NCBI GenBank assembly: GCA_903897765.1
Contig: CAIUCY010000073.1
Span: 1-37,534 of the forward strand
Reading direction: 5' to 3'
Origin: an uncultured Candidatus Marinamargulisbacteria bacterium
GTDB taxonomy: Bacteria > Margulisbacteria > Riflemargulisbacteria > GWF2-35-9
Length of the DNA stretch: 37,534 nt
Positions within the stretch are counted from its first letter, which is position 1, and each line of letters starts with the position of its first letter. This document shows, piece by piece, positions 8,279-32,440 of the stretch. The translations under genes and the position numbers were made by a program. A model generated the notes under the pieces. The model did no database searches, had not been told where the DNA came from, and saw nothing but the letters and a program-made list of their open reading frames with translations.

Positions 8279-8946
8279 GCGATATCGCCTCTATACTCGG
8301 TTTTTCGTTCAACGATCCAGCCTTGATCGAGGAGGCACTTACTCATGGCTCTACGCTCAACAGCGACGTTGATTATGAGCGTTTGGAGTTTCTTGGCGAT
8401 GCCATCTTAAAGCTTGTTCTAACCGAAGCCCTCTTTATGAAGTATCCGGATAAAACAGAGGGTGAGCTTAGTGGTCTTCGTTCCATTTTAGGTAGTGATC
8501 AATTATTAGGACGTAAAGCAGCCGAAATGGGATTAGCTCCGTTCATCCAAGTTGCACCGCATGAAGATCAACTTCGACATCATGAACGAATACTCGGCGA
8601 TGTCCTTGAAGCGCTTTTTGGCGCGATCTATTTGGATCAGGGACTTGAAAGGGTCCGAGAATGGATTTGCGAAATTTACGCTAACGCTCTCGATGGAACC
8701 GAAGATCTAAGTGAGTTGCAGGATTACAAAACGGCGTTACAAGAACGCACCCAATCAAAGAATTTAGGACAACCCAACTATATTTTAATGAGCGAAGACG
8801 GTCCCGTACACGAACGAACCTTCACTGTTCAAGCCCAAATCGATCGTGAGGGAATAACGCTTTTGGCATCAGGCGCTGGCCGCAGCAAGAAACATGCCGA
8901 GCAAACCGCAGCCAAAGCCTTGCTAAAACAACTCGATCTCATCTAG
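8275..8946 (+). CDS. rnc: Ribonuclease III
   Basis: ALTHGS, YERLEFLGDAIL, DVLEALFGAIYLD, dsRBD DYKTALQE...GRSKKHAEQ. Confidence 0.97.
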   Translation: MSDIASILGFSFNDPALIEEALTHGSTLNSDVDYERLEFLGDAILKLVLTEALFMKYPDKTEGELSGLRSILGSDQLLGRKAAEMGLAPFIQVAPHEDQLRHHERILGDVLEALFGAIYLDQGLERVREWICEIYANALDGTEDLSELQDYKTALQERTQSKNLGQPNYILMSEDGPVHERTFTVQAQIDREGITLLASGAGRSKKHAEQTAAKALLKQLDLI

Positions 8947-11900
8947 TAGTATCGTTTGTTGTTCGTCTGTCCTGTCTGATAAGCTTTTAAATTGTATGGT
9001 CATCGCATTAGCTAATGCTAGAGATAGTTGCGCAGGCAAACCCCATCCTGCTTGTCGAAACTGGCTAAAATAAAGTGTATAGCATATCCATTGGTTCGGC
9101 AGTGGATGGATCGGGTACAAAAAGTCGTCATAATCGGTAACCACCGAGGATGTCGCCGCAATAACCACCCCAATTGGTGCATTCGTTTGTGTTTTTATCC
9201 AAAAACGCAGCCCTTTATACGACGATAAATCCATCAATTGATGATGCTGCCTCAAGTCGATGTAGGCCATGGCTTGAGGACCTACAACTCCTGATAGGAC
9301 GCCTAATGTATAGGAAAAAGACAAAACATGACTATCCAATAATCCTTGAGATTGTCGTGAAATATTGGCCAGTGTCCCAGAATTTTGTGACAAAGCCCCC
9401 CAGTCCGTACTAAATTCTGAAAGAAGCCTTGAATCAGGAAATTCAAAGTTGTCGATTTTTGTTGTCGATCCTTGGTTAAGTTCAAGATAGAGTATCGCTC
9501 CATAATACCCTGTTCTGGCTGACTGTTTATCAACAACAAGCCCTAAATGATAGGCGCCCAAGGCTACGGGGTTCTGGCCTCTAAGCAATACCGATGATGT
9601 CGTATCTTGACGATCATATATGTCGAGCCATGCAGCATTGGGTGAAGACGGAAAACTAATCACATTTGTGGTTAGCAACATTTTTACTGGAAGGACTTGC
9701 AAGATATTTCCCGATGCGTCCTTTCGTGCCAATCCAGCAGATCCTGACTCCGAAACGACTTGATCCGAAAACGCTCGAATATTCCATGAGGGATCGGCTG
9801 CACTCATTTGGATAGCATTGGTAACCGTAAAATAAACAAATCGAGCTGAAGAGGACACGTTCCCCATTGAAATATTAAGGGTGAGTTGAGACAGGTAGTC
9901 TCCTGAATAGGGATAAAATATGCTTGTGTTCCCTAAATCCGTTTGCCAACTTCCATAGGTATTTTTCTTGGCATCGATCGCATTCCAGTTCGTGGCTACA
10001 TTACCCGTACCCCAATTACAGCTGATGACATAACTTAGAGTAATACTCATCACCGACCCCGTCACAGAGTACTCCCAAGAAGCATCCTTAATGGCTTGGT
10101 TGGGATTATTTACGATCGATAGCGAAGGCCACAATGCTTTCGGAAGCGAGAACTGAACCGCCCCCCCCCCAGTGCCACTGTAGACCTGAGCAATATCCAC
10201 CGTGCTAATATAACTGCCTCCTGCCGTTGAGTTGAGTCGCAAAGCAACATGATTAATGGATTTGTTGTGAAGTCGAGTTGAAACAGCCCCTGAAACATAG
10301 CTGGGCGCTACCCCGGGATTAACCAAATCCGTCAAAACATTAGGCATCGCCCCCGTAATAAGTAGGGCAGACAAAAGGCCTAGACTTTGGCCAAAATAAT
10401 CATATTTGCCTGCCGTATCGTAATCAACCGCTAAGAAAGAATATTTTTCGCTATATGAATAATTTAAATACCCATCAAATACTGTTTTCCAGTTACTTAT
10501 ATAGTTGCCGTCACCACTCCCCAAAGCACCGGCTCCCATCATGGCAATAAGCGGCAAATTCGGGCCATACAGATCATTCCCGTTCAGATCCATAAATTTT
10601 ATTGAGGCCAAAGTTTTATTCGCCCCAATATAGTTGCTGGCATTGGTTAAAAAGGCTTGCGCTTTCGGTTCATTAAACCATATTTTATCTGTAGCTAACC
10701 GCCAATAGGTTCTAATGGCGTCCCATGCCATGGTATAACCGTTCCCCCCGCTTTGTTCTCCCCAACTGTTACTCCAGTCGGGTACAAGCCCTTTCGAATA
10801 TCCAGGATTAGACGAAATCGTTGAGTAACCTTGTGCGATCACGGGATTCCAATCATGATTTTGATTCTCATAGAGCAAATAATTCTTGTACCATGCAGGA
10901 GAAAAATACGATGAATTGGTTAAGAGACGTCCCCCATTATAATAGTCGCCTAGTCGTATATATCGACTGAACTCCAGATCATTCTTGATATATTGATGGA
11001 TGAGTGTCTGCGCTTTAGTTGAGTAACTATACCCTGTGTTCGTCCAAAAGCCCTTCTGTACTAAAATGTCGGCAAACATTAACGCCGTGGCAACATCACC
11101 ATCAGCATCCGTGGCAGAATGGGGATCGGCTACCGTTCCATTGGCACTCACTTTCCAGGCGAGAAGATTGGTTGCCCCAGACGTCGCCATGATCGTCCAT
11201 GTTTTATTCAGCAATTGGTCAAAAAAAGGTTGATCGTTCATGAATATCGCGATAAGAAGCCCATATCCTGAGGCTTCCGAGGTGGCATAATCTAACGCAT
11301 CTTGTTGTGAAGAGCTTCCTTTCCCTGGATCAAAAATGAGGCCATAAGCTGAAGAGGACACAACCCCCTGATACTTTTCAACAAATTGATACTTATACCC
11401 CTTCCAAAGGTGTTGAATTTCTCGGCGATAATTGGCCATACTTGGATAGGCCCCAGCACTGAGATTCCCCGATGCCACCAAGCGATCGATCAATAAGGTA
11501 TTAAAGGTTGATGTAACATCAGTTTGATCAAAAAAAATATTTCTGACCGATATTTGATGGAGAACTCCGGATGAGGCATCAACAGGGTTATACTGGATCT
11601 GCTTAACTCTTGTCATATCGATCCCTTGAAAGGAATCAAGGTTGATCTCAATGGTTTTATATTGTGTCGCACTTAAATCATCAATATGATATCGTTTCGA
11701 CTTAACACCATTAACCGTTGAATCATCAATTAAAAATAAATCCACCTTGCCTGTATCACTCTTAATATCGAGGAGAAGTCGCTTGTAGTTTTTTAAGTTA
11801 ACAACAGTCCAATTAACATCAAAGGGATGATTAATCCAAGCCCAACCACTTGGCAAAAAGTTATAGGTAATAAACATTTCTGTTGAGGAATTAACAAAGG

Positions 11901-12033
11901 TTCCAAAAGTGCTACCCGAACTTGTGCCTCCATACGGTACCCCTGTGACAAAATAGACTGGAAATGTGCTTGCGAAAACTGAAGCATTAACAAATAAAAA
12001 GAAAATGGCTAACCGCAACCACATGGTTTTCAT
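8923..12033 (-). CDS. Secreted multidomain glycoside hydrolase family 8 with N- and C-terminal carbohydrate-binding-like domains
   Basis: Signal peptide (MKTMWLRLAIFFLFVNASVFA). GH8 motifs TSEASGYGLL, SATDAD, SYFSPAWY, WDAIRTYWR. C-terminal CBM11/CIA30-like DLSSYKGLRFWIK...LDEIELF. Confidence 0.82.
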   Translation of the reverse strand: MKTMWLRLAIFFLFVNASVFASTFPVYFVTGVPYGGTSSGSTFGTFVNSSTEMFITYNFLPSGWAWINHPFDVNWTVVNLKNYKRLLLDIKSDTGKVDLFLIDDSTVNGVKSKRYHIDDLSATQYKTIEINLDSFQGIDMTRVKQIQYNPVDASSGVLHQISVRNIFFDQTDVTSTFNTLLIDRLVASGNLSAGAYPSMANYRREIQHLWKGYKYQFVEKYQGVVSSSAYGLIFDPGKGSSSQQDALDYATSEASGYGLLIAIFMNDQPFFDQLLNKTWTIMATSGATNLLAWKVSANGTVADPHSATDADGDVATALMFADILVQKGFWTNTGYSYSTKAQTLIHQYIKNDLEFSRYIRLGDYYNGGRLLTNSSYFSPAWYKNYLLYENQNHDWNPVIAQGYSTISSNPGYSKGLVPDWSNSWGEQSGGNGYTMAWDAIRTYWRLATDKIWFNEPKAQAFLTNASNYIGANKTLASIKFMDLNGNDLYGPNLPLIAMMGAGALGSGDGNYISNWKTVFDGYLNYSYSEKYSFLAVDYDTAGKYDYFGQSLGLLSALLITGAMPNVLTDLVNPGVAPSYVSGAVSTRLHNKSINHVALRLNSTAGGSYISTVDIAQVYSGTGGGAVQFSLPKALWPSLSIVNNPNQAIKDASWEYSVTGSVMSITLSYVISCNWGTGNVATNWNAIDAKKNTYGSWQTDLGNTSIFYPYSGDYLSQLTLNISMGNVSSSARFVYFTVTNAIQMSAADPSWNIRAFSDQVVSESGSAGLARKDASGNILQVLPVKMLLTTNVISFPSSPNAAWLDIYDRQDTTSSVLLRGQNPVALGAYHLGLVVDKQSARTGYYGAILYLELNQGSTTKIDNFEFPDSRLLSEFSTDWGALSQNSGTLANISRQSQGLLDSHVLSFSYTLGVLSGVVGPQAMAYIDLRQHHQLMDLSSYKGLRFWIKTQTNAPIGVVIAATSSVVTDYDDFLYPIHPLPNQWICYTLYFSQFRQAGWGLPAQLSLALANAMTIQFKSLSDRTDEQQTILLDEIELF
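10161..10170. repeat. C10/G10 homopolymer inside the GH8 gene
   Basis: Ten consecutive C on the plus strand, encoding T-G-G-G-A on the minus strand. Confidence 0.9.
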
Positions 12034-17367: not shown

Positions 17368-18573
17368 CTATGTTCGCAAACGGGAATCCACAAGCGAGCA
17401 CACCTCATCAACCGTAATGCTTTTCAGGCAAACGTTGTCATTGCACCTTGTTTTTCGGTGGTTCATTGCCGTTAAACAGGGACTGCACGTAAACGGGGCA
17501 TAGATCGCCACGGTTTTATCTGAAAGTGGTTTATAGAGTGCGGGGGTTTCGGGGCCAAAGAGAACCAGGTTATGAACAGGGATGAGGGATGCAAAATGAG
17601 CAGGCCCACTGTCGTTAGTCAAAAAGACATTGGCAAGGCTGAGCACATGAATTAGCTCGTTAAGGTTTTGGGTTTGACCGGTCAAATCAATAAGATTAGG
17701 GTCGTTATGGCATAACCCCCGAATAAAATCAGCATCTTCTTTGGCACTCGCTAACCCCACGATCACAACACGGGCGCGGCTCTTCGTAAGGGCATATTGC
17801 GCCACTCGGGCAAACGCTGCGTGCCCCCAGTTTCGGATAGGAAGAAGCTTGCCTGGGTTGGGATTTATAACCAAAATAGGCAGATCGCTGCCAATAATGT
17901 CTTTGAAGCGAGCTTCGATAGCTGTATCTGTCTTAAAAGGAGGAAGGCTCACCTTATAAGACGTCGTTGGTTTTCGAAGATAACTGTGCTCATCAAGGCA
18001 GAGCGCGTCCGCCAATGCCAAAAAATTATAGACCATATGAACATGCGGATTATAGTAGACATTGTGGGTCAACAGATTGCCTCGATACAATCCTTCATGG
18101 GTATATTTATAAAACCCTACACGGCAGGGGATATGGGCCATGTAGCTTAAAATCGAGGTAAACCGGCTAAAAAGCTCCAGATCAAGAACCACATCAAAGC
18201 GCGTTCTCCACGCCCGAAAAAGGAACCCGAATGTATCCTTCAAGAACGACATCAAGCCATCATCACGAATGACCCAAATATTTTGAGGGGGAATAATTCC
18301 CAGCAACTCAACGCTCTCTTTGTTTTTTTCAAAAATAAGAAAGGATAACGCGGCCTCGGGAAACGTCTCTTTCAGCTTTAATATCGCTGAATATGCGATC
18401 ACAGTCGACCCCATCTCCGACAGCTCTATAAGGAGTATCTTTCGCGGTGATCGTTGGGGTTTTGGGCGACGCACGTGTTGAAGAAGCGATATCAGCTTAC
18501 GATGAAGCGACAGAACGAAGCAAATCGGGATACCTATATATTTATCAACAAAGCGAACGGTTTCTATGTTCAT
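17368..18573 (-). CDS. Glycosyltransferase family 9 (LPS heptosyltransferase-like)
   Basis: LSEMGS, DLTGQT, NDSGPAHFAS, LFGPETP, Cys-rich CSPC...C...C tail. Start moved to ATG 18573 because the 15 upstream codons contain its promoter. Confidence 0.88.
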   Translation of the reverse strand: MNIETVRFVDKYIGIPICFVLSLHRKLISLLQHVRRPKPQRSPRKILLIELSEMGSTVIAYSAILKLKETFPEAALSFLIFEKNKESVELLGIIPPQNIWVIRDDGLMSFLKDTFGFLFRAWRTRFDVVLDLELFSRFTSILSYMAHIPCRVGFYKYTHEGLYRGNLLTHNVYYNPHVHMVYNFLALADALCLDEHSYLRKPTTSYKVSLPPFKTDTAIEARFKDIIGSDLPILVINPNPGKLLPIRNWGHAAFARVAQYALTKSRARVVIVGLASAKEDADFIRGLCHNDPNLIDLTGQTQNLNELIHVLSLANVFLTNDSGPAHFASLIPVHNLVLFGPETPALYKPLSDKTVAIYAPFTCSPCLTAMNHRKTRCNDNVCLKSITVDEVCSLVDSRLRT

Positions 18574-18585
18574 GTGAAGAACGAA

Positions 18586-18637
18586 AGCATACGAAGTAAC
18601 AGATTGATTGTCAAGCAAGCGGGGTTCTTGATAAGAT
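18586..18637. promoter_or_regulatory. Back-to-back divergent promoters with overlapping -35 hexamers (GT9 / ArnT-like)
   Basis: Minus: TTGACA(18614-18609)-N17-TATGCT(18591-18586). Plus: TTGTCA(18608-18613)-N18-TAAGAT(18632-18637) with TG extension. Confidence 0.65.
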
Positions 18638-18644
18638 TAAGCCC

Positions 18645-20183
18645 ATGCGAAATATCCTGCTTTTAGTCCTTCTGGGTGTTTTCTTGTTTATTGTGGGGAA
18701 CAATCAATTCACGATGTTTGATAATTCCGAAACCCATGGCTCGATGGTCGCAAGAGAAATTGTCACCCTTAAAGACCCCTTCACCATGCACTCGAATGGT
18801 AAACCTTGGTTTGTTCACCCTCCGTTGTCTTTCTGGCTTCAAAGTGCCACTTGTCAACTTTTCGGTTGGACCGATTTTAACTTGAGACTGAATGAAGCGA
18901 TTTTTGGGATCGTGGGGCTTATTGTCACTTTTATGATAGGGCGATTATTCTTGACTGAAGCTGTTGCACTTGCGGGCAGCCTTATCCTTGGCACCTCGAT
19001 GTACTATTTCGTCATTGCTCGAATGGCTATCTTTGACACGATACTCAACACCTTTATTCTGCTAGCGATCTATTTCTTTTTTAAGGCTTATTTAAACCCT
19101 CAAAAGAAAGGGCGTTATTTTTTGGGTTATGCTCTCGCCACGGTGCTTGCCGTTTTATCAAAGGGGCCGATCGGTTTGGTTCAACCTGGGATGATCATCG
19201 TCCCTTTTTTATTCTTCAAGAAAGACTTAAAATTTCTATGGGATAAACGCGTTGGGCTCAATTTCCTCTTATTCCTTGCACTAGCGAGCCCTTGGTATCT
19301 CTACGAGTTTTCCATTCATGGGATACAATTTTTTAATGTCGCATTGAAGGACTATACGTGGTTTCGCTTTTTCGGCGTGGTCGAAAGCCAGCCCGGCCCG
19401 TGGTATTACTATGTCTCCGCCCTTCTCTTTTTCTTTCCTTGGGTGTTTCATATCCCAAGCACACTCAAGTCGGGCTTGTCACACACCCCTCGTAATCGCG
19501 ATTTCTTTCTTTTTTCTTGGCTCTTTATTGGGATCTGTTTTGTCTTTTTTTCCTTTGCGGGAACCAAACAGCCCAATTACATCATCTCGATATTCCCCTT
19601 TCTATCGCTGCTGATGGCACAGTCCTTGTTTGAGACCACCTCAAAGCGTTGGGTGTTGGTTGAAGCGTTGCTTACGTTGCTATTCGCGCTCTTTCTGACT
19701 ATTGCGGTCACCAAAATGGCGTTACCCCCGATGTATATGGCTGACCGTCCACTGCTGATCTGGTTTTTTGGGATCCCTACGGTCACCGCACTCGTCGCCT
19801 TGGTGGGTTATGCTCGAAACAAGGCTCGGGGGCTCGTCACGGCTCACGTTTTAGGGACGATAGTCTGGCTATTCTTTATGACGTTTATTTTCTTCCCTGC
19901 TATCGATAAATATAAAGACAGCGAAACCTTTGTTAAGGCCATAAAAGCCGAAAAGATAACCAACTACACGCTGGTTAATTTCCATGGCTATAGCCCGTAT
20001 TTGATGTATTATTTGGATCGAGAGGTCAAACATTCCGACTCGCTTGACGAGATTATGCAGTTATTAAAACCATCCGGGGTCTATTATTTAATCGTTGGTA
20101 AATCGTTTAACGAAAAGATCAAGAACTTAAAGCACATTACCGACGGATATCATCAGTCCCTCTATCGGATAATCGTTCCCTAA
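18645..20183 (+). CDS. ArnT/PMT-family (GT83/GT39) multi-pass membrane glycosyltransferase
   Basis: DNSE motif, KPWFVHPPLSFWL, LSKGPIGL, PWY, KQPNYI, many hydrophobic segments. Confidence 0.88.
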   Translation: MRNILLLVLLGVFLFIVGNNQFTMFDNSETHGSMVAREIVTLKDPFTMHSNGKPWFVHPPLSFWLQSATCQLFGWTDFNLRLNEAIFGIVGLIVTFMIGRLFLTEAVALAGSLILGTSMYYFVIARMAIFDTILNTFILLAIYFFFKAYLNPQKKGRYFLGYALATVLAVLSKGPIGLVQPGMIIVPFLFFKKDLKFLWDKRVGLNFLLFLALASPWYLYEFSIHGIQFFNVALKDYTWFRFFGVVESQPGPWYYYVSALLFFFPWVFHIPSTLKSGLSHTPRNRDFFLFSWLFIGICFVFFSFAGTKQPNYIISIFPFLSLLMAQSLFETTSKRWVLVEALLTLLFALFLTIAVTKMALPPMYMADRPLLIWFFGIPTVTALVALVGYARNKARGLVTAHVLGTIVWLFFMTFIFFPAIDKYKDSETFVKAIKAEKITNYTLVNFHGYSPYLMYYLDREVKHSDSLDEIMQLLKPSGVYYLIVGKSFNEKIKNLKHITDGYHQSLYRIIVP

Positions 20184-20188
20184 ACGAT

Positions 20189-20314
20189 CTAAGCCTTCTT
20201 TAATATCTTTCCGGTAACACGAATAATCCGCTTAGCACCATAAAAACTATCTCCGAGCATCAGAAATCCGTTTTTGTGAGCGACGTTTAGCGTTTCTTTT
20301 CTGGCAGTAAACAT
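20189..20314 (-). CDS. Putative 41-aa basic small protein (MFTARKETLNVAHKNGFLMLGDSFYGAKRIIRVTGKILKKA)
   Basis: Strong SD AAGGGGAGGGG before ATG 20314. Fills the gap up to the convergent ArnT stop. Confidence 0.5.
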   Translation of the reverse strand: MFTARKETLNVAHKNGFLMLGDSFYGAKRIIRVTGKILKKA

Positions 20315-20331
20315 TTGGTCATCCCCTCCCC

Positions 20332-20361
20332 TTGTGTTTGATATAAATTTATCGAACACAA
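20332..20361. repeat. 12-bp inverted repeat (hairpin or operator)
   Basis: TTGTGTTTGATA-taaatt-TATCGAACACAA, one mismatch (G-U on the plus-strand RNA). Confidence 0.7.
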
Positions 20362-20384
20362 ATCGCGAGAATTGCAGGGAAAAT

Positions 20385-21671
20385 TTAGGGTGGATTTTTT
20401 GCTCCAGGAACGTTTGCGTCTGTTGGTTTGGGCTGACTAGGCTCGTAGACACGTTTTACAAGTTCCCCGTCTTTTTCAATGAGAATCACATTATCATTCT
20501 TTATTTGTTCTAGAGTCGGCTCAACCCATGACGTTTGATCGATGTTAAGGTCTGGGTACTCTTTTACTAGTTGTGTCCCTAATTTATGTAATGTGTTCCC
20601 TGCATCGGTTGGTCCTTTCTGTTCCAAATTAAATGTTTCTTCGATTAATTTTGCCGACACAGGGGTTCCTTTACAATGCTTATTAATCTCCTGAGCCGCA
20701 TAACGAAGTAAAATGGCCATCTCTTTCCTGCCCAGTTTATAAAAATCAATATCTTTCAGACAGCTTAATTTCTTTAATAGGGCAATAAACACCCCAATAC
20801 TTGCGCCATCTTTGTTTCCAAAGAGCGGATCGTTTGGACTCATTGCCTCGAGGAAAGTTTTAAGTGGGCGAGGAAACTGGGCGATGCCGTTGGGGTCTTT
20901 TGCGATATCTCTATTTCGAGAGGCATTATTAAACTCAAACTGCTGATCTTTTTGGTCAGCAGTTTTCATCTCGTCAAAAAATCCACGCTCTCCCGGTTTT
21001 CCATAAAGGGTATCTCGTATCTCGTTTATGGTTGGATTCGACTTTAGATTCGTTGATTTGGCATAATTGATCATGATCGTATTTAGTAGTATTTGATCCA
21101 GTTCGGCGAGTTTAGCTAGGTCGCCCGTTTTATGTGCCTCGGATATTTTAGGGTGTAATTCATCAACTAAGGCCTTAAAAAAATTGCCCGCTCCAGCTAG
21201 GGCATCAAGTTCTTTCATTTGATTAGCGTTTAATGACACCCTGCTTATGTCGTCCTTGATCTCGGGATCCCAAAACAATATTATTTTTGCCATGTTCTTT
21301 AAATAATCGCCTTCATATTTTCGGCCGTTTAGGATGATGCCCCCAATTAGCCCCGTACTGCAACTTCTCCACTTGTTGTACTGGGAAGCTATGGCTGTCC
21401 ACTGTTCGGACGTTATTTTATCAAGTTTGCCTGGGTTTATGGACTCCGATATCATAGCCATTTCCACAATTTCGCCCCTTGTTAAAATTTTGGATGCTTG
21501 GCTTTTGTTGATATTTCCCCACTTCGTTTCCTCATAATCGGGATTAATTCGGTCGCCGAGCCGACTGTTATCGGCCGTAGCAGAAACAGGGGTTTGACTT
21601 TTTTCTGTACCTGGCTTGACAGGAACAGAGGTGGGCTTATTAGGGGCTGGATTAACAACTCCACCCGCCAT
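20385..21671 (-). CDS. Hypothetical protein (428 aa), no recognisable family
   Basis: Long ORF; ATG 21671 overlaps the upstream small ORF stop (TGATG). Pro/Ser/Thr-rich termini, helical-looking core. Confidence 0.8.
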   Translation of the reverse strand: MAGGVVNPAPNKPTSVPVKPGTEKSQTPVSATADNSRLGDRINPDYEETKWGNINKSQASKILTRGEIVEMAMISESINPGKLDKITSEQWTAIASQYNKWRSCSTGLIGGIILNGRKYEGDYLKNMAKIILFWDPEIKDDISRVSLNANQMKELDALAGAGNFFKALVDELHPKISEAHKTGDLAKLAELDQILLNTIMINYAKSTNLKSNPTINEIRDTLYGKPGERGFFDEMKTADQKDQQFEFNNASRNRDIAKDPNGIAQFPRPLKTFLEAMSPNDPLFGNKDGASIGVFIALLKKLSCLKDIDFYKLGRKEMAILLRYAAQEINKHCKGTPVSAKLIEETFNLEQKGPTDAGNTLHKLGTQLVKEYPDLNIDQTSWVEPTLEQIKNDNVILIEKDGELVKRVYEPSQPKPTDANVPGAKNPP

Positions 21672-21802
21672 CAATAATCCCCGGGGGCATCAGCCAATTG
21701 TAAGACGATAGGTGGCAACTCAGGTGGGCGAACCGGATTTTTGATCTGGTTGAGTCGCTCCTGCATGAGCCATGATTGGATATCGAGGTCGACGGGAATC
21801 AT
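21671..21802 (-). CDS. Unlisted 43-aa small protein (MIPVDLDIQSWLMQERLNQIKNPVRPPELPPIVLQLADAPGDY)
   Basis: Start overlaps the upstream stop (ATGA) and stop overlaps the downstream start (TGATG). Fills the intergenic gap exactly. Confidence 0.7.
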   Translation of the reverse strand: MIPVDLDIQSWLMQERLNQIKNPVRPPELPPIVLQLADAPGDY

Positions 21803-22671
21803 GCGGTGAGTTGTTTGGATTGACTCAATATAGCTGCTAACAAATACCCTTCAGCTTTCAAATTCCTCGCACCGAGAGATGCTTGATTGCTAGTCTCTTG
21901 GGAAGGATTCTTATCTGAATTTGCTATTAGTTCATTAATGAGAAATTCTAATAATATTTGTTTTTTATCAATTCCCTTGTTTCTCAACTCGGCATTCAAG
22001 GCGATGTTCATATCGGCCGTTGGGGTGCCCCCTTTTTTTAATACAGCGATCATATCCATTAATGTTTTGTTCTCCCGTAGCGCTTGCAATTTTTTTTCAA
22101 TATTTTTTTCCTCAGCTTTTTTTGCCATCTGTTTCAGGTTTTCTTTGTCTTTGGCTGAATTTTCTTCAATGGTTTTGACGAATTGTTTGACTGCTTCTTC
22201 TCTCACTTCCATCGGCATCTTAAGAATTTGAGCGAGAATATCGCGACACCACTGTTGTACCGCCGTATCTTTGGACGTTAACATGCCCATAAATTTTGTA
22301 GCTATAAAGGAGTTGCCTTTTTTTAGCTTGAGACTGATCGTGCCATCGTCTTTCTTTTCAAATTCGGTAGCACCCATCTCTTTAAGAGTATTAATCGCTT
22401 GCTCATCAACCCCCATTAAATTCAAGAACTCAGCAACCGCATCCTCACCCTTTGACGCAGTCGTCATGAGTTTGTCGGTTTGCTGCTTTGATAAAACGAA
22501 GGTGATCGGGATAATACTCCCCGACAGGTTTGTAAAGGTTGCTTTCAAAGCCCCATCCAAAGAGGTAGTAATGTCAAGTGAGCCGGAGTTCGTCTTGAAT
22601 GTTTTTTCAGACTTTTTAGCATTTGCTTGAGGAATTCCCGCTAGAGCAGATACATTTGCAGGACCAACCAT
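21799..22671 (-). CDS. Hypothetical Lys/Glu-rich protein (290 aa) with probable coiled coil
   Basis: SD AGGGGGAG before ATG 22671 (MVGPANVS...). Charged helical stretch EENSAKDKENLKQMAKKAEEKNIEKKLQALRE. Confidence 0.8.
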   Translation of the reverse strand: MVGPANVSALAGIPQANAKKSEKTFKTNSGSLDITTSLDGALKATFTNLSGSIIPITFVLSKQQTDKLMTTASKGEDAVAEFLNLMGVDEQAINTLKEMGATEFEKKDDGTISLKLKKGNSFIATKFMGMLTSKDTAVQQWCRDILAQILKMPMEVREEAVKQFVKTIEENSAKDKENLKQMAKKAEEKNIEKKLQALRENKTLMDMIAVLKKGGTPTADMNIALNAELRNKGIDKKQILLEFLINELIANSDKNPSQETSNQASLGARNLKAEGYLLAAILSQSKQLTA

Positions 22672-22751
22672 ACACTCTCCCCCTATCTTTTCGACTGTAA
22701 ATTTATTGTGCCCAATATTTGCGATCTTAAACCTGCTTTTTTGAAATCCGG

Positions 22752-22766
22752 TTAACATGTTAAACT
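22752..22766 (+). promoter_or_regulatory. Extended -10 (TGtTAAACT) for nadA overlapped by a perfect 12-bp palindrome
   Basis: TTAACATGTTAA at 22752-22763. TAAACT 22761-22766 lies 6 nt before ATG 22773; no SD. Confidence 0.55.
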
Positions 22767-25921: not shown

Positions 25922-28900
25922 ATGAAAAAAACCCCTCTCTCTCCGATTGAGCAGCAGTTCTGGCACGAACAACAGATTTTCGCCGATAGTCCTGCCCTAA
26001 ACATTGGCGGATACACCCTAATCGATGGGCATATCGATGCATCCACTTTTCAACAATCCATTCGATTCTTTTTAAGGCATACCTATGCGTTTTGCCGATT
26101 CTTTCTAAATCGTGATATGGCCGACATCAACCCTAATCCCGATTACACGGTCAGGGTCATGCATCAATCCGATGAGGACAGCCTGACTTGGATGCAAACC
26201 GCGATGCGCCAACCCTTTGACGTCGGACACTATCCCCTATTTGATATAAACCTACTGTATTCTGATTCACACACTTATTTCTTTGCACGCGTTCATCATC
26301 TGCTAACCGATTCATGGGGATTGTCACTTTTTCTGCAAACGATATCCATGCTCTATAACCATTACCGCCGGTTTGGATCTTTTCCTACTTCAACAGGATG
26401 TTTTCCATACAACGACAGCATCGAACAAGTTTTGTCATATGCAAGATCCTCACACTATGAAGCAGATAAAGCCTATTGGCTGGGGAAGTTTTCCTCTCTA
26501 CCACCAACCCTCTTCGACCAAAAGGAGCCCAAACATGCCTTGGCCCTTCGAGAAAGTTTTACCATCCCTCGCGAGACACTAAATGATATCGAGGCGTTTG
26601 CCCATAGCAAGGACGCGACGGTTTTTCACTATTTTCTTGGAGCGCTCTATCTTTGTCTTGCGTTGCATTACACTCAAACCGATCTCGTCGTCGGAATCAA
26701 CCTTCTAAATCGTTTTGACAAAAAACAAAAGCAAACCATTGGCACCTTTTTTAATACCCTCCCCTTACAAATTTCTATTCATGAAGATGAACCCTTTAGA
26801 ACGCTTCTTAAATTAATCAAAAAAACCCTTCGAAGCGACTATCGTCACGCTCGCTTCCCTAGTCGAGATATTGCCTCGATGATAAACAAAGCGGGGCTAT
26901 TTGATATCATCTTCTCTTATGAAAAACATCCATACGCCACAGATTTTGATCATTACGCAACACAAAGCATTGCGATTTCGTCGGGCATGATGCGCGGCAA
27001 ACTAAACATATACATTCGAGACTATTCATATTTACATAACGTAGACATAGATATTGACTTCAACGCCAAGGTATTCAGTCGCTCCGATAGACAAGCGCTC
27101 ACTGAATCATTTAAGGGCTTGATTTACAAACCGCTTGATACTATCAACTATCAAGCGGACATCTATAGAATGTCCAAAGGCAAGGTCTTATCACACAATC
27201 ACGAGACAATCCCTGCTGTTTTTGAGCATCAAGTTAGTCTCACCCCTCATCGAATCGCCCTTATAGTTGATCAACAAGCCTATTCCTATGAAGAATTGAA
27301 CGCGCGGAGCAATAGGGTAGCCCACGCTTTGCGAGAACAGGGCATTAGTGTAGATAGCCTCGTCGCCATACTCTTTGACTATTCCCTTGAGATGATTGTC
27401 GCAATACTGGGCATTCTAAAGGCGGGCGGGGCGTATTTGCCTATTAATCCCGACGACCCTGCCCCCCTCATCGCCCATCGAATCGCCCATAGCCAAGCAA
27501 AACTTGTGCTTCGAACTCTACCCACCCATAGCAACAACCAAAACCTGCCACACATCAATGAGCCATCTAACTTGGCTTATGTGATCTACACCTCTGGATC
27601 GACCGGTGACCCCAAAGGTGTCCTTCTCGAACACAAAGGCGTCATCAATGTCCTGCGTCATTGGGTCGAAGCCTATGACCTGACACTGAACCCAACGACA
27701 TTGCTTCAGCTATCGGATTACACACACGATGTGTTCACCGGCAATTGGGTTAAAACGTTGCTTACGGGAGGGACGCTCGTTATTCCGTCCGGCATGGAAC
27801 GAAAAGACCTCGGAGGCTTGGCTCGTTTGATGTCCACACATCGGGTAAGTATGCTCGACACCACCCCCGCCATTATTCTTCGTCTAATTGACTATATTAA
27901 AGAAAATAACCTAGAAAGCGCCTCGACATTAACACACATTCTGCTCGGCTCTGACCTATGCCATCTGGAAGACTATCGAAAACTCGCCAAAGCATTTTGG
28001 GGGCAAGCTCGCGTGATTAATACCTATGGCGTCACCGAAGCCACCATTTATAGTTGTGATTATCAAACACCCCTCGACGAGATCCCTCTTCATGGAGCCA
28101 CGCCCATCGGTAAACCATTTTGCAACACTCAACTATTCGTACTTGATAAGTCCTTAACGCTGCTTCCTCAAGGTGTTGAAGGTGATCTCTACCTCGGGGG
28201 GGACGGCTTAGCCAGAGGCTATTTAGACCGTCCGGACCTAACAGCCAAAAAGTTTATTGCTTCACCTTTTGATGTAAACAAGCGCCTGTATGCCACAGGT
28301 GATCGTGCTAAATGGGCACAAGATGGACAATTAATTTTTCTGGGGCGTAGCGACTTCCAAGTAAAGATCTCTGGTTATCGAGTGGACATCGAGGAGATCG
28401 AGAACACGCTAAGACAACACCCTCTCGTCGAAGAAGCGATTGTTGTCGGCGTGAACAAAGACCCAAACAGACAAACCCTCATAGCGTATTACGTGTCAAC
28501 AACACCCATATCAGATGAGGCCTTTCGCCAATATTTAAGCAATAAGTTGCCACGACATATGATTCCGACCCGATATATTTTCAACGTTTCCCTCCCCTTA
28601 AACACCAGTGGCAAGGTGGATCGTAAAGCCCTTCGCGAAAAAGCCAATCAACCTCAAAACACAGTAGCCCCCACAGAGATGACCCCAAGGCAAAGCCAGC
28701 TACTAAATATTTGGGAAACGGTTCTCCATCAACGGCCTATCGATATTAACGACGATGTATTCGATCTCGGGGCGGATTCGCTTGATTGCGTTAATATGCT
28801 GAGCCAACTTGAAAAAGAAGGAATTCACCTGACATTGGCAGACTTGTACCATTATCGCACCGTGTCTGATTTAGCAAAGATATCAGAGCGACAAGAAGCT

Positions 28901-30226
28901 TCCTTCCATGTTGATTTCGCGGCTCCCATACTCGAAAGCGATGGCATTGATGCTCAAACTTGCAAGCCACTGATATATTCACTCTGGCAACAAGAGAACG
29001 CTTACATTCAGCAGCTCATCTCACGTCCCGTCAGCCACATTTTCTCGCCCATATTGTATAAAAACAATCATCGCATCTTTGCCCGCGAGGTCTATTTTGC
29101 CAAACATCTCATCCTTGAAAACACCGACTTTTTGCGTTTAATAGCTGCCATTAACGGTCTCCTAGTCGAACAAAGCCTACTTCGCAGCACGTTCACAAAG
29201 AAAAATGATGAATACGTTTGGCACGAATACCTTCATCAGGATCTAGCCCATTTTCCGTTTCTCGATCTCTCTGCCTATTCACCTGCTTGGATAAAATCGT
29301 TTTGGCTAAACATTTTGATCCCTTATTATGAAGACATAAATCCCCTTCGAAGGCTTCCTTTTCGTTTTGCCCTCATCAAACATGCCGAAAAGAACCACTC
29401 GATCGTGTTCTTAATGGATGAGTCCATACATGATACCTATGGCGAGGATATTATTTGCCAAACACTGCAAGACATTTACGATCAAACGCGAATCCCAACA
29501 CCCCAGCCTCGCTATGAGGACTATCTGTCGTTCCTTCAGTCGAAGGGAGCGTTATCGTTAGAGCAAAACAACCTGTTTGGGTTTCAACGCCATGTCGACG
29601 CCCTGACACAAGTCCGTCAATATCTAGAGACTTATCCTAACGGCCAAACATTCGCGCATTTTTCTATTCCCCTTGATGTGCCTGCCAAATACCAAACTTT
29701 AACTAAATGGGAGCTCGCCATTCGAATATTCACGGCTTTCTTGCGGGCCTATCTACCCCTTCAACTCGTTCCCTTTTTTATGGTGGATGACTGTCGCCGT
29801 TTCAACCATGACCAATTTGTAAATACGGTTGGGGGGTTTGGGGATTATAGGCCACTACTGCTCGATATATCAAAAGATAATGCAACCCTCGCCACCTCCA
29901 TTCACGAAACATTGCAACATTATGTACACCATGGGGTTCATTTTCTCTCTCTTCTTGAACAAAACAAACTTCCCTCTGACTATCAAGACGATGCCTCCAT
30001 TAAAAAGGCAATGATTCTCTTTCGTTTCAACGCCCATTACAGTAACCTCCAAAGCGAGGAACTTCACGATAGCCTTACTCATCAAAAGAACTACGGTCGC
30101 GATCTTCAACGCTGGGGAGAAGGACTTTATTTCTTTGTCTCTTTTAAGGACGACCATCCACTCCTCACAGTGCGCACCCCATTTAAGCTGAGCGAGGATG
30201 AATTGAAACAATTACTTTTTCATTAA
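25922..30226 (+). CDS. Single-module non-ribosomal peptide synthetase: C-A-T plus degenerate terminal C-like domain, no TE
   Basis: C: HHLLTDSWG, IGTFFNTLP. A: LKAGGAYLP, YTSGSTGDPKG, NTYGVTE, YATGD, QVKISGYR, SGKVDR. T: FDLGADSL. Terminal C-like: EQSLLRSTF, DESIHDTYG, RYEDY, TVGGFGDYRP. Confidence 0.9.
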   Translation: MKKTPLSPIEQQFWHEQQIFADSPALNIGGYTLIDGHIDASTFQQSIRFFLRHTYAFCRFFLNRDMADINPNPDYTVRVMHQSDEDSLTWMQTAMRQPFDVGHYPLFDINLLYSDSHTYFFARVHHLLTDSWGLSLFLQTISMLYNHYRRFGSFPTSTGCFPYNDSIEQVLSYARSSHYEADKAYWLGKFSSLPPTLFDQKEPKHALALRESFTIPRETLNDIEAFAHSKDATVFHYFLGALYLCLALHYTQTDLVVGINLLNRFDKKQKQTIGTFFNTLPLQISIHEDEPFRTLLKLIKKTLRSDYRHARFPSRDIASMINKAGLFDIIFSYEKHPYATDFDHYATQSIAISSGMMRGKLNIYIRDYSYLHNVDIDIDFNAKVFSRSDRQALTESFKGLIYKPLDTINYQADIYRMSKGKVLSHNHETIPAVFEHQVSLTPHRIALIVDQQAYSYEELNARSNRVAHALREQGISVDSLVAILFDYSLEMIVAILGILKAGGAYLPINPDDPAPLIAHRIAHSQAKLVLRTLPTHSNNQNLPHINEPSNLAYVIYTSGSTGDPKGVLLEHKGVINVLRHWVEAYDLTLNPTTLLQLSDYTHDVFTGNWVKTLLTGGTLVIPSGMERKDLGGLARLMSTHRVSMLDTTPAIILRLIDYIKENNLESASTLTHILLGSDLCHLEDYRKLAKAFWGQARVINTYGVTEATIYSCDYQTPLDEIPLHGATPIGKPFCNTQLFVLDKSLTLLPQGVEGDLYLGGDGLARGYLDRPDLTAKKFIASPFDVNKRLYATGDRAKWAQDGQLIFLGRSDFQVKISGYRVDIEEIENTLRQHPLVEEAIVVGVNKDPNRQTLIAYYVSTTPISDEAFRQYLSNKLPRHMIPTRYIFNVSLPLNTSGKVDRKALREKANQPQNTVAPTEMTPRQSQLLNIWETVLHQRPIDINDDVFDLGADSLDCVNMLSQLEKEGIHLTLADLYHYRTVSDLAKISERQEASFHVDFAAPILESDGIDAQTCKPLIYSLWQQENAYIQQLISRPVSHIFSPILYKNNHRIFAREVYFAKHLILENTDFLRLIAAINGLLVEQSLLRSTFTKKNDEYVWHEYLHQDLAHFPFLDLSAYSPAWIKSFWLNILIPYYEDINPLRRLPFRFALIKHAEKNHSIVFLMDESIHDTYGEDIICQTLQDIYDQTRIPTPQPRYEDYLSFLQSKGALSLEQNNLFGFQRHVDALTQVRQYLETYPNGQTFAHFSIPLDVPAKYQTLTKWELAIRIFTAFLRAYLPLQLVPFFMVDDCRRFNHDQFVNTVGGFGDYRPLLLDISKDNATLATSIHETLQHYVHHGVHFLSLLEQNKLPSDYQDDASIKKAMILFRFNAHYSNLQSEELHDSLTHQKNYGRDLQRWGEGLYFFVSFKDDHPLLTVRTPFKLSEDELKQLLFH

Positions 30227-30248
30227 CATTTTGATGCGACTTACATCC

Positions 30249-31238
30249 TTACTCGAGGATAACCCTCAATGCGGGAACATCGACGGTGATCGTTCTATTC
30301 TTGAATCGACGTTTAAAGTGTCTAGGGATTCCTCTCGGCAATTTAACATGAAGGGAATAGGATTCAAGCTCCTGCCAACCTAACCAATGCTCAGGATGTT
30401 TTTTTAATAGCGCCTCAAAAGCCTGAGTGATCAGGGTTGCATCTTCGGGTGTAGCTCGCATCCGTTCTGACTCAAGAGTTAGCCCATCCTCCCAAGTAAA
30501 AAGTCCTAGGGTCGGCATGAAGATTAATAAAGGAAAGGGGCTTGAACGTGTTAGCCAGTCTGGCCACCAATCGGCCAGTATAAGTGATAATTTAGATCCG
30601 ATGGCTATGTTTAGGGGGATGTCCCTTCGACTTTCAACATAAGGACGATCCGCCACGACAAGCACTCTCATTTTAGAACGCCCTTCAACCATGGTGGGTA
30701 AGACAACGCTTTGACTGGTTTGCCATACTACAAAGCGACGCTTAAAATCATCATGACGGGGATCAGCTAAAACAAGGTCTAAATAATGGTTTATCTGTGT
30801 TTGCCATCGTTGCGGCAGCACCAAAATAAACTGAGCATCTGGATCTTCTTCCATCGCATAAGCCATAAAGAATACAATCAGCATCATAAAGCCACTGGTT
30901 TGAGCGACTAAAAGATTAACACACAGCGACTCCGAATATACCGACAAACGTTGACGAAAACCATCATAATGATAGGGATAGTCACGAAGAACCCATTGAT
31001 AGGGCGTTAACTCGTTAAAGGGAAGCAACCACGTATTATAATAATTCCATCGGCTCGCCATCAAGGTACGATGAAGAAATCGTTTCGCCCCCATCAGCGC
31101 TAGCATTGCCCACATGACCTGTAAAAAAAACTGTTTTTGCCGCGAGGGATCAAAATAGAACTCGTCATGTGCCTCGACTCGGCTTCCACGGTACCGAGAG
31201 AGCCGGATCATTTCTGAAATTTTACTCATGATAGCCAC
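30249..31238 (-). CDS. Divergent LpxL/lysophospholipid acyltransferase-like protein
   Basis: FEALLKKHPEHWLGW resembles the LpxL E..I...PEQW.W motif and LVVADRP resembles the L..DQ motif. Catalytic HX4D/E is not evident. Start may be ATG 31229. Confidence 0.5.
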   Translation of the reverse strand: MAIMSKISEMIRLSRYRGSRVEAHDEFYFDPSRQKQFFLQVMWAMLALMGAKRFLHRTLMASRWNYYNTWLLPFNELTPYQWVLRDYPYHYDGFRQRLSVYSESLCVNLLVAQTSGFMMLIVFFMAYAMEEDPDAQFILVLPQRWQTQINHYLDLVLADPRHDDFKRRFVVWQTSQSVVLPTMVEGRSKMRVLVVADRPYVESRRDIPLNIAIGSKLSLILADWWPDWLTRSSPFPLLIFMPTLGLFTWEDGLTLESERMRATPEDATLITQAFEALLKKHPEHWLGWQELESYSLHVKLPRGIPRHFKRRFKNRTITVDVPALRVILE

Positions 31239-31300
31239 CCTAAGCTATTGTATTACAAAGAAGGTCGTTTTTACCCCCATTTTATATTATACTTATGGGT

Positions 31301-31984
31301 ATGAAGAAAATTATTATCGTCTTTCTTTTGTCGTGGGCTTTTTGTCTCGACACCACCATGACCTTAACCGGTCAAGGATCGGTCAAATATCGGCCGAATA
31401 TGGCGGTCATTCAATTAGGGATCGAGGAGACTTATACCGATGCTGCCGCTGGACAAAAAGAAAGCAACAAAAAGATAAACGAATTTATTAAAAGTGCCAT
31501 GGGATATTTACCCAAAGAGCAGATGGAAACAACCGCACTTCAGGTTAACAGAAAGTTTGATTATCGGGATGGTCGGACTGTCTTTGCCGGTTATGATATT
31601 AAACAATCCATTCTCATATATTGTACCCACCTCGAACTCATCGGAACGCTTATTGACCTCAGCATGAAATGCGGACTCAATTCGCTTTATGGCGTTTCAT
31701 TTAGCCACACCCAACCCGATGCCTTTCAAAAGAGCGCCCTTGAACTCGCTTTAAAAGATGCAACCCAAAAAGCAAAACTCATCGCTCAAACCCTTAGTCT
31801 TAACCAAGTTGAACTCGTTGATCTTCAAATCAATCCGTCCCAAATACCGATCAATTTCGAGCCTCAACCTCGACTTATGTCGATCCAGAGCGCTGACACT
31901 ACAACCACAGCGCTTCCCAGTGAGTTAACAGCCACTCAGCTCATCACTGCTAAATTTAGCTTCAAAAGCAAGCCCATCAAATAG
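31301..31984 (+). CDS. SIMPL (DUF541/BP26/YggE-like) periplasmic protein
   Basis: Signal peptide MKKIIIVFLL, TGQGSVKYRPNMAVIQLGI, ALKDATQKAKLIA. TATACT lies 7 nt before ATG 31301. Confidence 0.85.
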   Translation: MKKIIIVFLLSWAFCLDTTMTLTGQGSVKYRPNMAVIQLGIEETYTDAAAGQKESNKKINEFIKSAMGYLPKEQMETTALQVNRKFDYRDGRTVFAGYDIKQSILIYCTHLELIGTLIDLSMKCGLNSLYGVSFSHTQPDAFQKSALELALKDATQKAKLIAQTLSLNQVELVDLQINPSQIPINFEPQPRLMSIQSADTTTTALPSELTATQLITAKFSFKSKPIK

Positions 31985-31993
31985 GAGGTTTTC

Positions 31994-32440
31994 ATGAAAG
32001 ATATTTTGATTATTATGGGGAGTCGATCAGATGAGCCCATTTTAGACGAGGCGACCCCTTATCTCGATAAATTTGGACTAACCTATGACAGGGTCATTGC
32101 TTCAGCACATCGAAACCCAGAACGAGTAACAGAACTCGCGAAAACCGCTTCGCAGCATTACCGTGTCATCATCGCTGCAGCGGGGAAGGCAGCCCATCTA
32201 CCTGGCGTTTTTGCAGGCCACACCACCCTTCCTGTCATTGGAGTCCCTATCAAAACCTCCGATCTCGGGGGCGTGGATTCTTTATATTCCATCGTTCAGA
32301 TGCCAAGAGGTGTTCCCGTCGCGACAGTTGCTATCAATGGTGCAGCGAATGCAGCGATACTCGCCGCACAGATCCTCGCTATTGCTCAACCGGAACTCCA
32401 ATTAAAACTTGAATCCTTTAAAGAGGAATTAAAAGGATAG
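31994..32440 (+). CDS. purE: N5-carboxyaminoimidazole ribonucleotide mutase
   Basis: IIMGSRSD, SAHRNP, AGKAAHLPG, SIVQMPRGVPVATV; SD AGGAGG. Confidence 0.97.
   Translation: MKDILIIMGSRSDEPILDEATPYLDKFGLTYDRVIASAHRNPERVTELAKTASQHYRVIIAAAGKAAHLPGVFAGHTTLPVIGVPIKTSDLGGVDSLYSIVQMPRGVPVATVAINGAANAAILAAQILAIAQPELQLKLESFKEELKG

Follow-up and report, generated by a model that had tools for sequence, protein, structure and literature searches.

N-terminal starter condensation (C) domains of nonribosomal peptide synthetases (NRPSs) N-acylate the amino acid that has been loaded and can use acyl-CoA or acyl-ACP (acyl carrier protein) pools. A comparable N-acylated head group is found in ornithine lipids, which are normally made by an N-acyltransferase (OlsB) together with an O-acyltransferase (OlsA). 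Starter (Cs) domains are described as the first domains of lipopeptide synthetases, and the subtype motifs quoted in the relevant part of the same source include DxxxxD for Cy, HRxxxDD for X and HxxxDxxS for CT domains (PMC11546977). Here, we analyse an NRPS gene (25922-30226, forward strand) and the gene that converges on it within a 37,534-nucleotide stretch of DNA (the window; contig CAIUCY010000073.1 of assembly GCA_903897765.1) from an uncultured Candidatus Marinamargulisbacteria bacterium. A previous interpretation made from the letters alone, referred to below as the sequence-only reading, had joined these two genes into a candidate aminolipid pathway acting on a basic amino acid. We instead read the NRPS gene, with about an even chance of being right, as a working, reduced and order-specific Margulisbacteria NRPS that carries an unusual condensation-superfamily domain (C*) and makes a product of the non-basic N-acyl amino acid type, its neighbour not being a demonstrated partner. 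This lineage-specific NRPS family is better supported than the aminolipid pathway, itself a reasonable but weakly supported proposal.

The synthetase and its terminal domain

The NRPS open reading frame (ORF) encodes a protein of 1434 amino acids with the domain order C1-A-T-C*, where A is the adenylation domain and T the carrier (thiolation) domain. Pfam assigns Condensation to residues 3-402 (169 bits), AMP-binding to residues 434-768 (234 bits), AMP-binding_C to residues 825-898 and PP-binding to residues 926-986 (48.5 bits). C, A and T all belong to a single polypeptide and each passes a curated threshold, in Pfam for all three and also in NCBIfam for A, where the model TIGR01733 for adenylation domains reaches 368 bits (cut-off 317); among NCBIfam models the protein matches only NRPS and acyl-ligase families. 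Pfam finds no thioesterase or reductase domain in the protein. The order C-A-T-C* and the lack of a release domain given by the sequence-only reading are thus upheld, with the proviso that the C-terminal Condensation match is sub-threshold (see below).

The N-terminal condensation domain (C1; 25928-27127, forward strand) retains an intact HHLLTDSWG motif, the second His of which is kept in all 17 canonical C domains of this NRPS family. It is the first domain of the protein, with no carrier domain upstream of it. Its best sequence matches in the PDB are starter C chains of RzmA (7c1k, 7c1h and 7c1p; E 1.6e-24 to 5.3e-23), followed by 4jn3, 'CDA peptide synthetase I' (E 9.3e-20), which we take to be the CDA starter C domain. 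The first non-starter match is bacitracin synthase 3 (E 8.2e-19), with others close behind. These comparisons support a candidate starter, or lipoinitiation, role for C1, as previously proposed, although not decisively.

The A domain, including its C-terminal subdomain (27221-28615, forward strand), has intact core motifs. Read off motif anchors in an alignment of 21 A domains of the family, and with positions assigned by what we take to be the GrsA numbering, its pocket is DVGAILTIYK, which includes no acidic side chain. Ornithine and lysine codes contain an acidic pocket residue, and a basic amino acid is consequently not indicated as substrate; on this numbering, that element of the sequence-only reading is unsupported. 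The pocket type DVG[AS][IV]x[ST]IYK is common to 8 of the 21 A domains, whilst a further 10 are of a second type, which has Glu in ninth place. The T domain (28697-28879, forward strand) carries its Ser within GADSLD, in a column kept in 21/21 T domains of the family.

The C-terminal domain (C*; 28922-30223, forward strand) is a lineage-specific subtype of the condensation superfamily. Taken alone, residues 1001-1434 match Pfam Condensation at 23.7 bits, below the cut-off of 30.6, over profile positions 38-183, and the label C* is fair because the match is sub-threshold only. In the register given by hhalign, the motif aligned to HHxxxD runs from D1166 to D1171 (D-E-S-I-H-D; 29417-29434, forward strand), and the longer HHxxxDG-aligned motif reads D-E-S-I-H-D-x-x-G. 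In all 19 C* domains an acidic residue (12 Glu, 7 Asp) takes the place of the catalytic second His; a His stands three residues past that place in 18, the first motif position is Asp in 16 and the sixth is Asp in 15. The canonical C domains of the same loci, by contrast, keep the catalytic His in every case (17/17). Families ~22% identical to each other retain these C* motifs, and the consensus D-[ED]-x-I-H-D matches none of the subtype motifs quoted in the part of PMC11546977 referred to above.

Despite this replacement, the relationship of C* to condensation domains can be recovered. An hhalign comparison of the 19 C* domains with 17 canonical C domains gave a probability of 97.4% (E 1.2e-11), and an AlphaFold2 (AF2) model built from the 19-sequence alignment (pLDDT 85.1, pTM 0.84) returned 238 PDB matches at E<=0.001 in Foldseek, led at ~1e-18 by the CT domain of TqaA together with ordinary C domains. 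An Atlas feature search on C* likewise gave Condensation (0.97). On these models C* is predicted to have the V-shaped, two-lobed condensation (CAT) fold; the Foldseek ranking establishes the fold and not the subtype. A direct phmmer search of the PDB with C* produced chance-level rows only (reovirus mu-1, E>=0.43) and no solved C, E, Cy or X chain.

C* follows a T domain in 24/24 examples, being terminal or stand-alone in 22 and succeeded by a canonical C domain in 2. The latter are C-A-T-C*-C arrangements within single proteins encoded at two metagenome loci (L063:123-6107, forward strand, and L061:1-2859, forward strand), where C* occupies the slot usual for an epimerisation (E) domain. This order suggests that C* is not simply an inter-module condensation catalyst, nor necessarily a release domain. 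In the window NRPS, judged by domain content, no domain other than C* is a candidate for off-loading in cis.

Distribution, synteny and selection

C* was sought in 61 related genomes, comprising six of the window's own family (f1, which includes the genome of the window itself), five of a second family (f3) and 50 others. It is present in 11 of them, namely 6/6 in f1 and 5/5 in f3, compared with 0/50 elsewhere in the phylum sample. The genome to which the window belongs (G000, where it is contig C73) spans 2.16 Mb in 250 contigs and is 82% complete; a second genome of the same genus (G001) is 97% complete. In both of these, condensation domains occur only in the NRPS gene. The same gene order is also found on a contig of a Candidatus Marinamargulisbacteria metagenome-assembled genome, the nearest named relative.

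When the loci were mapped by phmmer with the proteins of the window, a block conserved across both families emerged, nadA-(bioB)-mnmA | NRPS | SIMPL-purE-cvpA, in which the content of the NRPS position varies. The f3 loci (G007-G010) encode a C-A-T-C* protein (~1540 amino acids), an A-T-C* protein (~990 amino acids) and a stand-alone canonical C domain (~398 amino acids; Pfam 136.8 bits), with SIMPL adjoining the NRPS genes. G000 and G001 have one C-A-T-C* protein with f3-like flanks, and G002 has one immediately before purE. G003 has C* (Pfam 33.8 bits, above the cut-off) apart from its C-A-T protein, and both are encoded on another contig. G004 has a multi-module line whose last two proteins are A-T-C*. 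G005 combines a C-A-T protein with a protein of 1644 amino acids in which a radical-SAM/B12 insert interrupts the A domain, followed by T-C*. A metagenome locus scan with a 6-sequence C* alignment added three loci, which contain two C-A-T-C*-C proteins and two further A-T-C* proteins. This NRPS family has been at the same chromosomal site since before the two families of the order split. The pocket type that the window enzyme shares with the first module of f3, together with the multi-module state of its relatives, identifies it as module 1 of an ancestral line of at least two modules.

An interrupted A domain is found in proteins of 1594-1644 amino acids (L023:4983-9917, reverse strand, in G005; L062:4398-9308, forward strand; and protein P0008), where it is split after ~115 residues by an insert of ~550 amino acids with Pfam matches to Radical_SAM (172-335) and B12-binding (514-625), after which the rest of A, T and C* resume. 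We know of no described A domain interrupted by a B12/radical-SAM enzyme. The NRPS set of G004 is larger and includes six Condensation matches (L024:1-13045, equivalent to G004:C53, and G004:C57); one of its frames, of 2492 amino acids, has a TGA within a match. The ends of G004 contigs C53 and C119 (L024 and L040) overlap by 196 nt with 195 identities, marking an assembly break inside the last A-T-C* gene.

Between G000 and G001, at a synonymous divergence (dS) of 0.72, the 4.3-kb NRPS frame has remained open in both, and the ratio of non-synonymous to synonymous divergence (dN/dS) is 0.17 overall (C1 0.22, A 0.12, T 0.27, C* 0.16). The housekeeping genes on either side have ratios of 0.03-0.08, lower by a factor of two to six. 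The open frame and the NRPS ratio argue that the window NRPS is reduced and not broken. The possibility, raised earlier, that it is a decayed fragment of a larger system thus finds support as to reduction from at least two modules but not as to decay, the gene being intact and under purifying selection.

From the observed domain order, folds, motif replacement, distribution, synteny and selection, we infer a route in which the acyl donor, amino acid, C* role and product would be as follows. The genus of the window keeps only the first module of a line that in its relatives consists of C-A-T-C*(-C) plus A-T-C* proteins. The A domain would load a non-basic amino acid onto T, the starter-like C1 would N-acylate it with an acyl-CoA or acyl-ACP donor from primary metabolism, and C* would either modify the tethered product, in keeping with its position in the epimerisation-domain slot, or release it by transfer to water or to some small nucleophile. 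We would expect a small molecule of the N-acyl amino acid type, for which a lipoamino acid, a signal or an envelope component are candidate roles. The fixation of the NRPS at one housekeeping locus across two families suggests a conserved physiological molecule and not an accessory antibiotic.

The convergent neighbour and competing explanations

The neighbour gene (30249-31229, reverse strand) encodes 326 amino acids from an ATG at 31229, the start used by its relatives; a GTG start would extend the ORF to 30249-31238. The NRPS stop codon lies at 30224-30226 and that of the neighbour at 30249-30251, leaving the gap of 22 bp (30227-30248) that had been described before and that was read directly from the sequence. 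No terminator-like site was found in this gap, the promoter and terminator scan being indistinguishable from shuffles. The junction is spanned with 0 differences by contigs from lake or freshwater metagenome runs of two other studies (X2 record 15, covering 29865-30850, and X3 record 23, covering 29502-32405), and it is not an assembly artefact because these independent contigs cross it unchanged.

The neighbour protein has no Pfam or NCBIfam match at E<=1. Its homologues are equally without Pfam matches, at E<=0.01 in G003 and L061 and at E<=1 in G004. Three word-indexed homologues share 77% identity, a phmmer search of 1.84 billion representatives recovered only its own cluster, and the family profile found 6 proteins in 5.8 billion. 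A profile search of the related genomes added diverged homologues in G004 and G003, and the metagenome locus L061 supplied a fourth lineage, the four sharing 16-32% identity. The family profile had 0 matches at E<=10 among PDB sequences, and when JGI metagenome contigs were scanned with the alignment of the neighbour, 186 pattern matches came up, none of them a relative.

The LpxL-like motifs attributed to this protein by the sequence-only reading need qualifying: the likeness holds for remote homology, and it shows only in profile comparisons and among the structural neighbours of a language-model structure. Compared by hhalign with 17 PF03279 (LpxL-family) proteins gathered from the same phylum, the neighbour family scored a probability of 93.3% with six sequences and 94.7% (E 6.3e-8) with seven, over 118-120 columns in the C-terminal half of the neighbour. 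The control alignments of C1, C* and A scored 0.1-0.2%, all 20 column shuffles <=0.2% and the reversed alignment 0.4%. The hidden Markov model (HMM) of the neighbour matched a PF03279 protein of G025 at 27.9 bits, and the LpxL HMM matched the G003 homologue at 21.8 bits. An Atlas language-model structure (pTM 0.62) had PF03279 clusters among its structural neighbours, with one naming-grade row (TM 0.59/0.72); an AF2 model from four close sequences reached a pLDDT of 38 and was used for no fold claim. The catalytic signature, however, does not extend to this family. PF03279 proteins of the phylum have a His and an Asp or Glu five residues apart in 17/17 cases, whereas the seven-member neighbour family lacks the H(X)4(D/E) dyad and has no invariant His anywhere; its His column holds Leu/Asn/Glu or Gln/Ser/Asn in the two registers given by hhalign and hmmsearch, with no dyad either way. 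One hydrophobic segment, near residues 101-126, is conserved by hydropathy, and a dN/dS of 0.13 denotes purifying selection. On sequence grounds, the neighbour is apparently a remote, catalytically degenerate LpxL-family (PF03279)-like protein, and it is a fast-evolving, family-restricted offshoot of that family. The idea that it derives instead, by divergence, from one half of the stand-alone C found at the same position in f3 was rejected, since hhalign against C1 and C* gave 0.1%.

Canonical PF03279 proteins occur in 19 of the 61 related genomes. In f1 (G000-G005), LpxC and LpxB were found in 5/5 searched genomes and a PF03279 match in 0/6, a pattern that fits an independent origin of the neighbour from LpxL.

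The neighbour is present in 4/6 f1 genomes, each of which also has a C* NRPS (4/4, plus L061), whereas seven of the 11 C* NRPS genomes (G002, G005 and the five of f3) have the NRPS without it. The two genes are convergent in G000 (22-bp gap), G001 (15-bp gap), L061 (7-bp overlap) and G004, the last pair being joined through the C53/C119 overlap. The G003 neighbour has nadA on one side and SIMPL on the other, and the NRPS of that genome is on another contig. The steadiest flank of the neighbour is SIMPL-purE-cvpA, at 5/5 loci (G000, G001, G003, G004 and L061). The adjacency may therefore be inherited, the whole block being syntenic, and the neighbour is a fixture of this block and not a demonstrated partner of the NRPS. 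The conserved linkage envisaged earlier is borne out in three of the four lineages but not by the NRPS loci that lack the neighbour or by the separated pair of G003.

The joint pathway of the sequence-only reading would have the neighbour take the N-acyl-aminoacyl thioester from T, by analogy with LpxL enzymes, which take acyl-ACP, and pass it to a lipid or envelope acceptor; or else it would feed C1 its acyl chain. In either case a thiotemplated aminolipid would result. The convergent arrangement in three of four lineages at 16-32% identity, the presence of the NRPS wherever the neighbour occurs, the starter-like C1, the absence of a release domain in cis and the LpxL likeness, hydrophobic segment and purifying selection of the neighbour all speak for it. 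We nonetheless consider it unlikely, albeit the least unlikely of the alternatives, and the proposal is weakened because the catalytic residues that it needs and a consistent co-occurrence are both lacking: PF03279 proteins have both the His and the H(X)4(D/E) dyad in 17/17 cases and the neighbour family has neither, most C* NRPS genomes lack the neighbour, the G003 pair is apart and convergent genes are not co-transcribed. Moreover, all f1 and f3 genomes have the NRPS, so that its co-occurrence with the neighbour does not discriminate, and the pocket is not that for a basic residue. A different account of the neighbour, which we rank next and doubt somewhat more, makes it a late acyltransferase of lipid A that has diverged within this family, or a non-catalytic lipid A-related factor, unrelated to the NRPS and beside it through inherited gene order. 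The f1 genomes that combine LpxC and LpxB with no canonical PF03279 protein, the presence of PF03279 in other related genomes, the occurrence of the neighbour in most of f1 and its invariable SIMPL-purE-cvpA flank would agree with such a role. It is opposed by the missing catalytic dyad, by G002 (95% complete) and G005 (86% complete), which lack both PF03279 and the neighbour, and by a control Synechococcus that also lacks PF03279, an LpxL-less lipid A producer therefore not being unusual.

The NRPS itself might alternatively be a relic of a multi-module line that releases no product and in which C* is a non-catalytic scaffold. Its relatives have at least two modules plus an extra canonical C domain, C* lacks the catalytic His, neither a thioesterase nor a reductase domain is present, only AcpS-size phosphopantetheinyl transferase (PPTase) genes are found in G000 and G001, and the NRPS has a higher dN/dS than its housekeeping flanks. 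A relic is, however, improbable when the 4.3-kb frame has stayed open at dS 0.72 and each of its four domains shows a dN/dS far under 1, when neither the core motifs of A nor the Ser of T has been lost and when the C* motifs persist across families at ~22% identity. Less probable still is the combination in which C* is a new catalytic class, using a carboxylate and a shifted His, and the His-less neighbour is a carrier-dependent transferase or adaptor that makes an aminolipid with the NRPS. Under that combination, C* could perform tailoring or release on carrier-bound N-acyl amino acids, and the recruited neighbour could transfer the thiotemplated N-acyl amino acid to a lipid of the envelope, the phylum being an uncultured one of diderms.

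Our preferred reading, of a working and order-specific NRPS with no demonstrated partner, has evidence to contend with as well. The margin by which C1 resembles starter over non-starter domains is small. G000 yielded one PPTase gene, of AcpS size (a 141-amino-acid frame), in a genome that is 82% complete; among five other genomes searched, G001, G002, G003 and G007 have AcpS-size genes only, and G004 alone has a second, larger PPTase-family frame (267 amino acids), beside another NRPS cluster (C57). The adjacency of NRPS and neighbour in three of four deeply diverged lineages could exceed what inherited synteny would give. Finally, 2/5 C* domains of the metagenome loci are followed by a canonical C domain in the same protein, which argues against C* as the release domain of those proteins.

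Surrounding genes and relation to known systems

As the sequence-only reading stated, the NRPS is a single module amid housekeeping genes. On its 5' side, Pfam identifies nadA, mnmA and bioB, the last divergent from the NRPS gene, and further upstream lie hydG/hydF/hydE-like genes, dapF, rnc, a glycoside hydrolase family 8 protein gene, the rib operon, nusB, accC, genes matching GT9 and PMT_2, and two ORFs without a Pfam match. On the 3' side, a SIMPL/DUF541 gene (31295-31984, forward strand; Pfam SIMPL 111.8 bits), divergent from the neighbour, is followed by purE, CvpA, a response regulator and histidine kinase, and then ABC transporter genes. Pfam finds no transporter, PPTase, acyl-ligase or tailoring gene among the neighbouring genes that adjoin the NRPS, again in agreement with the earlier description, and no ACP gene either; the nearest transporter genes (ABC solute-binding protein and permease) begin ~5 kb downstream.

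Several of the more distant genes of the window deserve mention. The region 917-5833 encodes [FeFe]-hydrogenase maturation proteins. Two are of the radical SAM type, one hydG-like (radical SAM/BATS) and the other hydE-like, and the third is HydF, in which both the dimer and the tetramer domain are present; among their genes sits one for a fumarase/aspartase-type lyase. A protein of 1036 amino acids (8923-12033, reverse strand) has glycoside hydrolase family 8 (residues 248-557) as its sole Pfam match. The two Pfam-less ORFs (20385-21674, reverse strand, 429 amino acids; 21799-22758, reverse strand, 319 amino acids) come after genes of GT9 heptosyltransferase-like and PMT_2 (ArnT-like) type in the region 17368-22758, and the 319-amino-acid ORF has weak relatives near cvpA in f3 loci.

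Margulisbacteria are uncultured relatives of Cyanobacteria, and the order that has this NRPS family is a freshwater one. A full-text literature search on nonribosomal synthesis in Margulisbacteria turned up, among the papers it listed, no described natural product or NRPS product from this phylum. Amongst characterized enzymes, the N-terminal part of the window NRPS most resembles the Cs-A-T lipoinitiation modules of RzmA and CDA peptide synthetase I, in that its first domain is a C domain whose HHxxxD is intact and which has no carrier upstream. It differs from them in its low identity and small E-value margin, and also in organization, as those lines are multi-module and end in a thioesterase whereas the window has one module that ends in C*.

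For C* itself, the close systems are off-loading C-like domains, which we take to include the fungal CT domains (TqaA, 5DIJ/5EJD), the hydrolytic CT of IvoA, the enacyloxin C domain (6CGO) and hydrolytic C domains of the crocacin type. In common with the DxxxxD of Cy domains, the C* motif begins and ends with Asp; unlike Cy, the window has no downstream module for Cys, Ser or Thr. In common with E domains, C* follows T and may precede C (L063 and L061), although it lacks the His of HHxxxD that E domains have. The missing catalytic His also recalls the X domain, which acts in recruitment only. From Cy, E and X alike, C* is set apart by the acidic residue in the His column and the new His at position 5. 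This uniform replacement makes the subtype a clean target for asking what the condensation fold is capable of once the canonical His is gone.

The neighbour bears comparison with LpxL, LpxM and PatA (PF03279, Lip_A_acyltrans), to which it is similar in length and in the profile of its C-terminal half, where the Asp of the 'aD(t/r)' strand and a P-E-x-W helix are shared. Its hydrophobic segment is, however, internal and not N-terminal as in PF03279 proteins, and it has neither their Pfam match nor their dyad. As an LpxL-type gene that has diverged past the reach of Pfam and lost its dyad, it matters for the annotation of lipid A pathways in candidate phyla. With the OlsB/OlsA route, the locus has in common only the idea of an N-acylated amino acid head group and a second acyltransferase: beyond the NRPS domains neither gene matches a Pfam acyltransferase family at E<=1, and the A-domain pocket lacks the acidic residue that an ornithine-lipid pathway would lead one to expect. 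The NRPS is in itself of a known kind; what is new here is that it carries an undescribed subtype of the condensation superfamily that, among the 61 related genomes, was found in two families of one order only.

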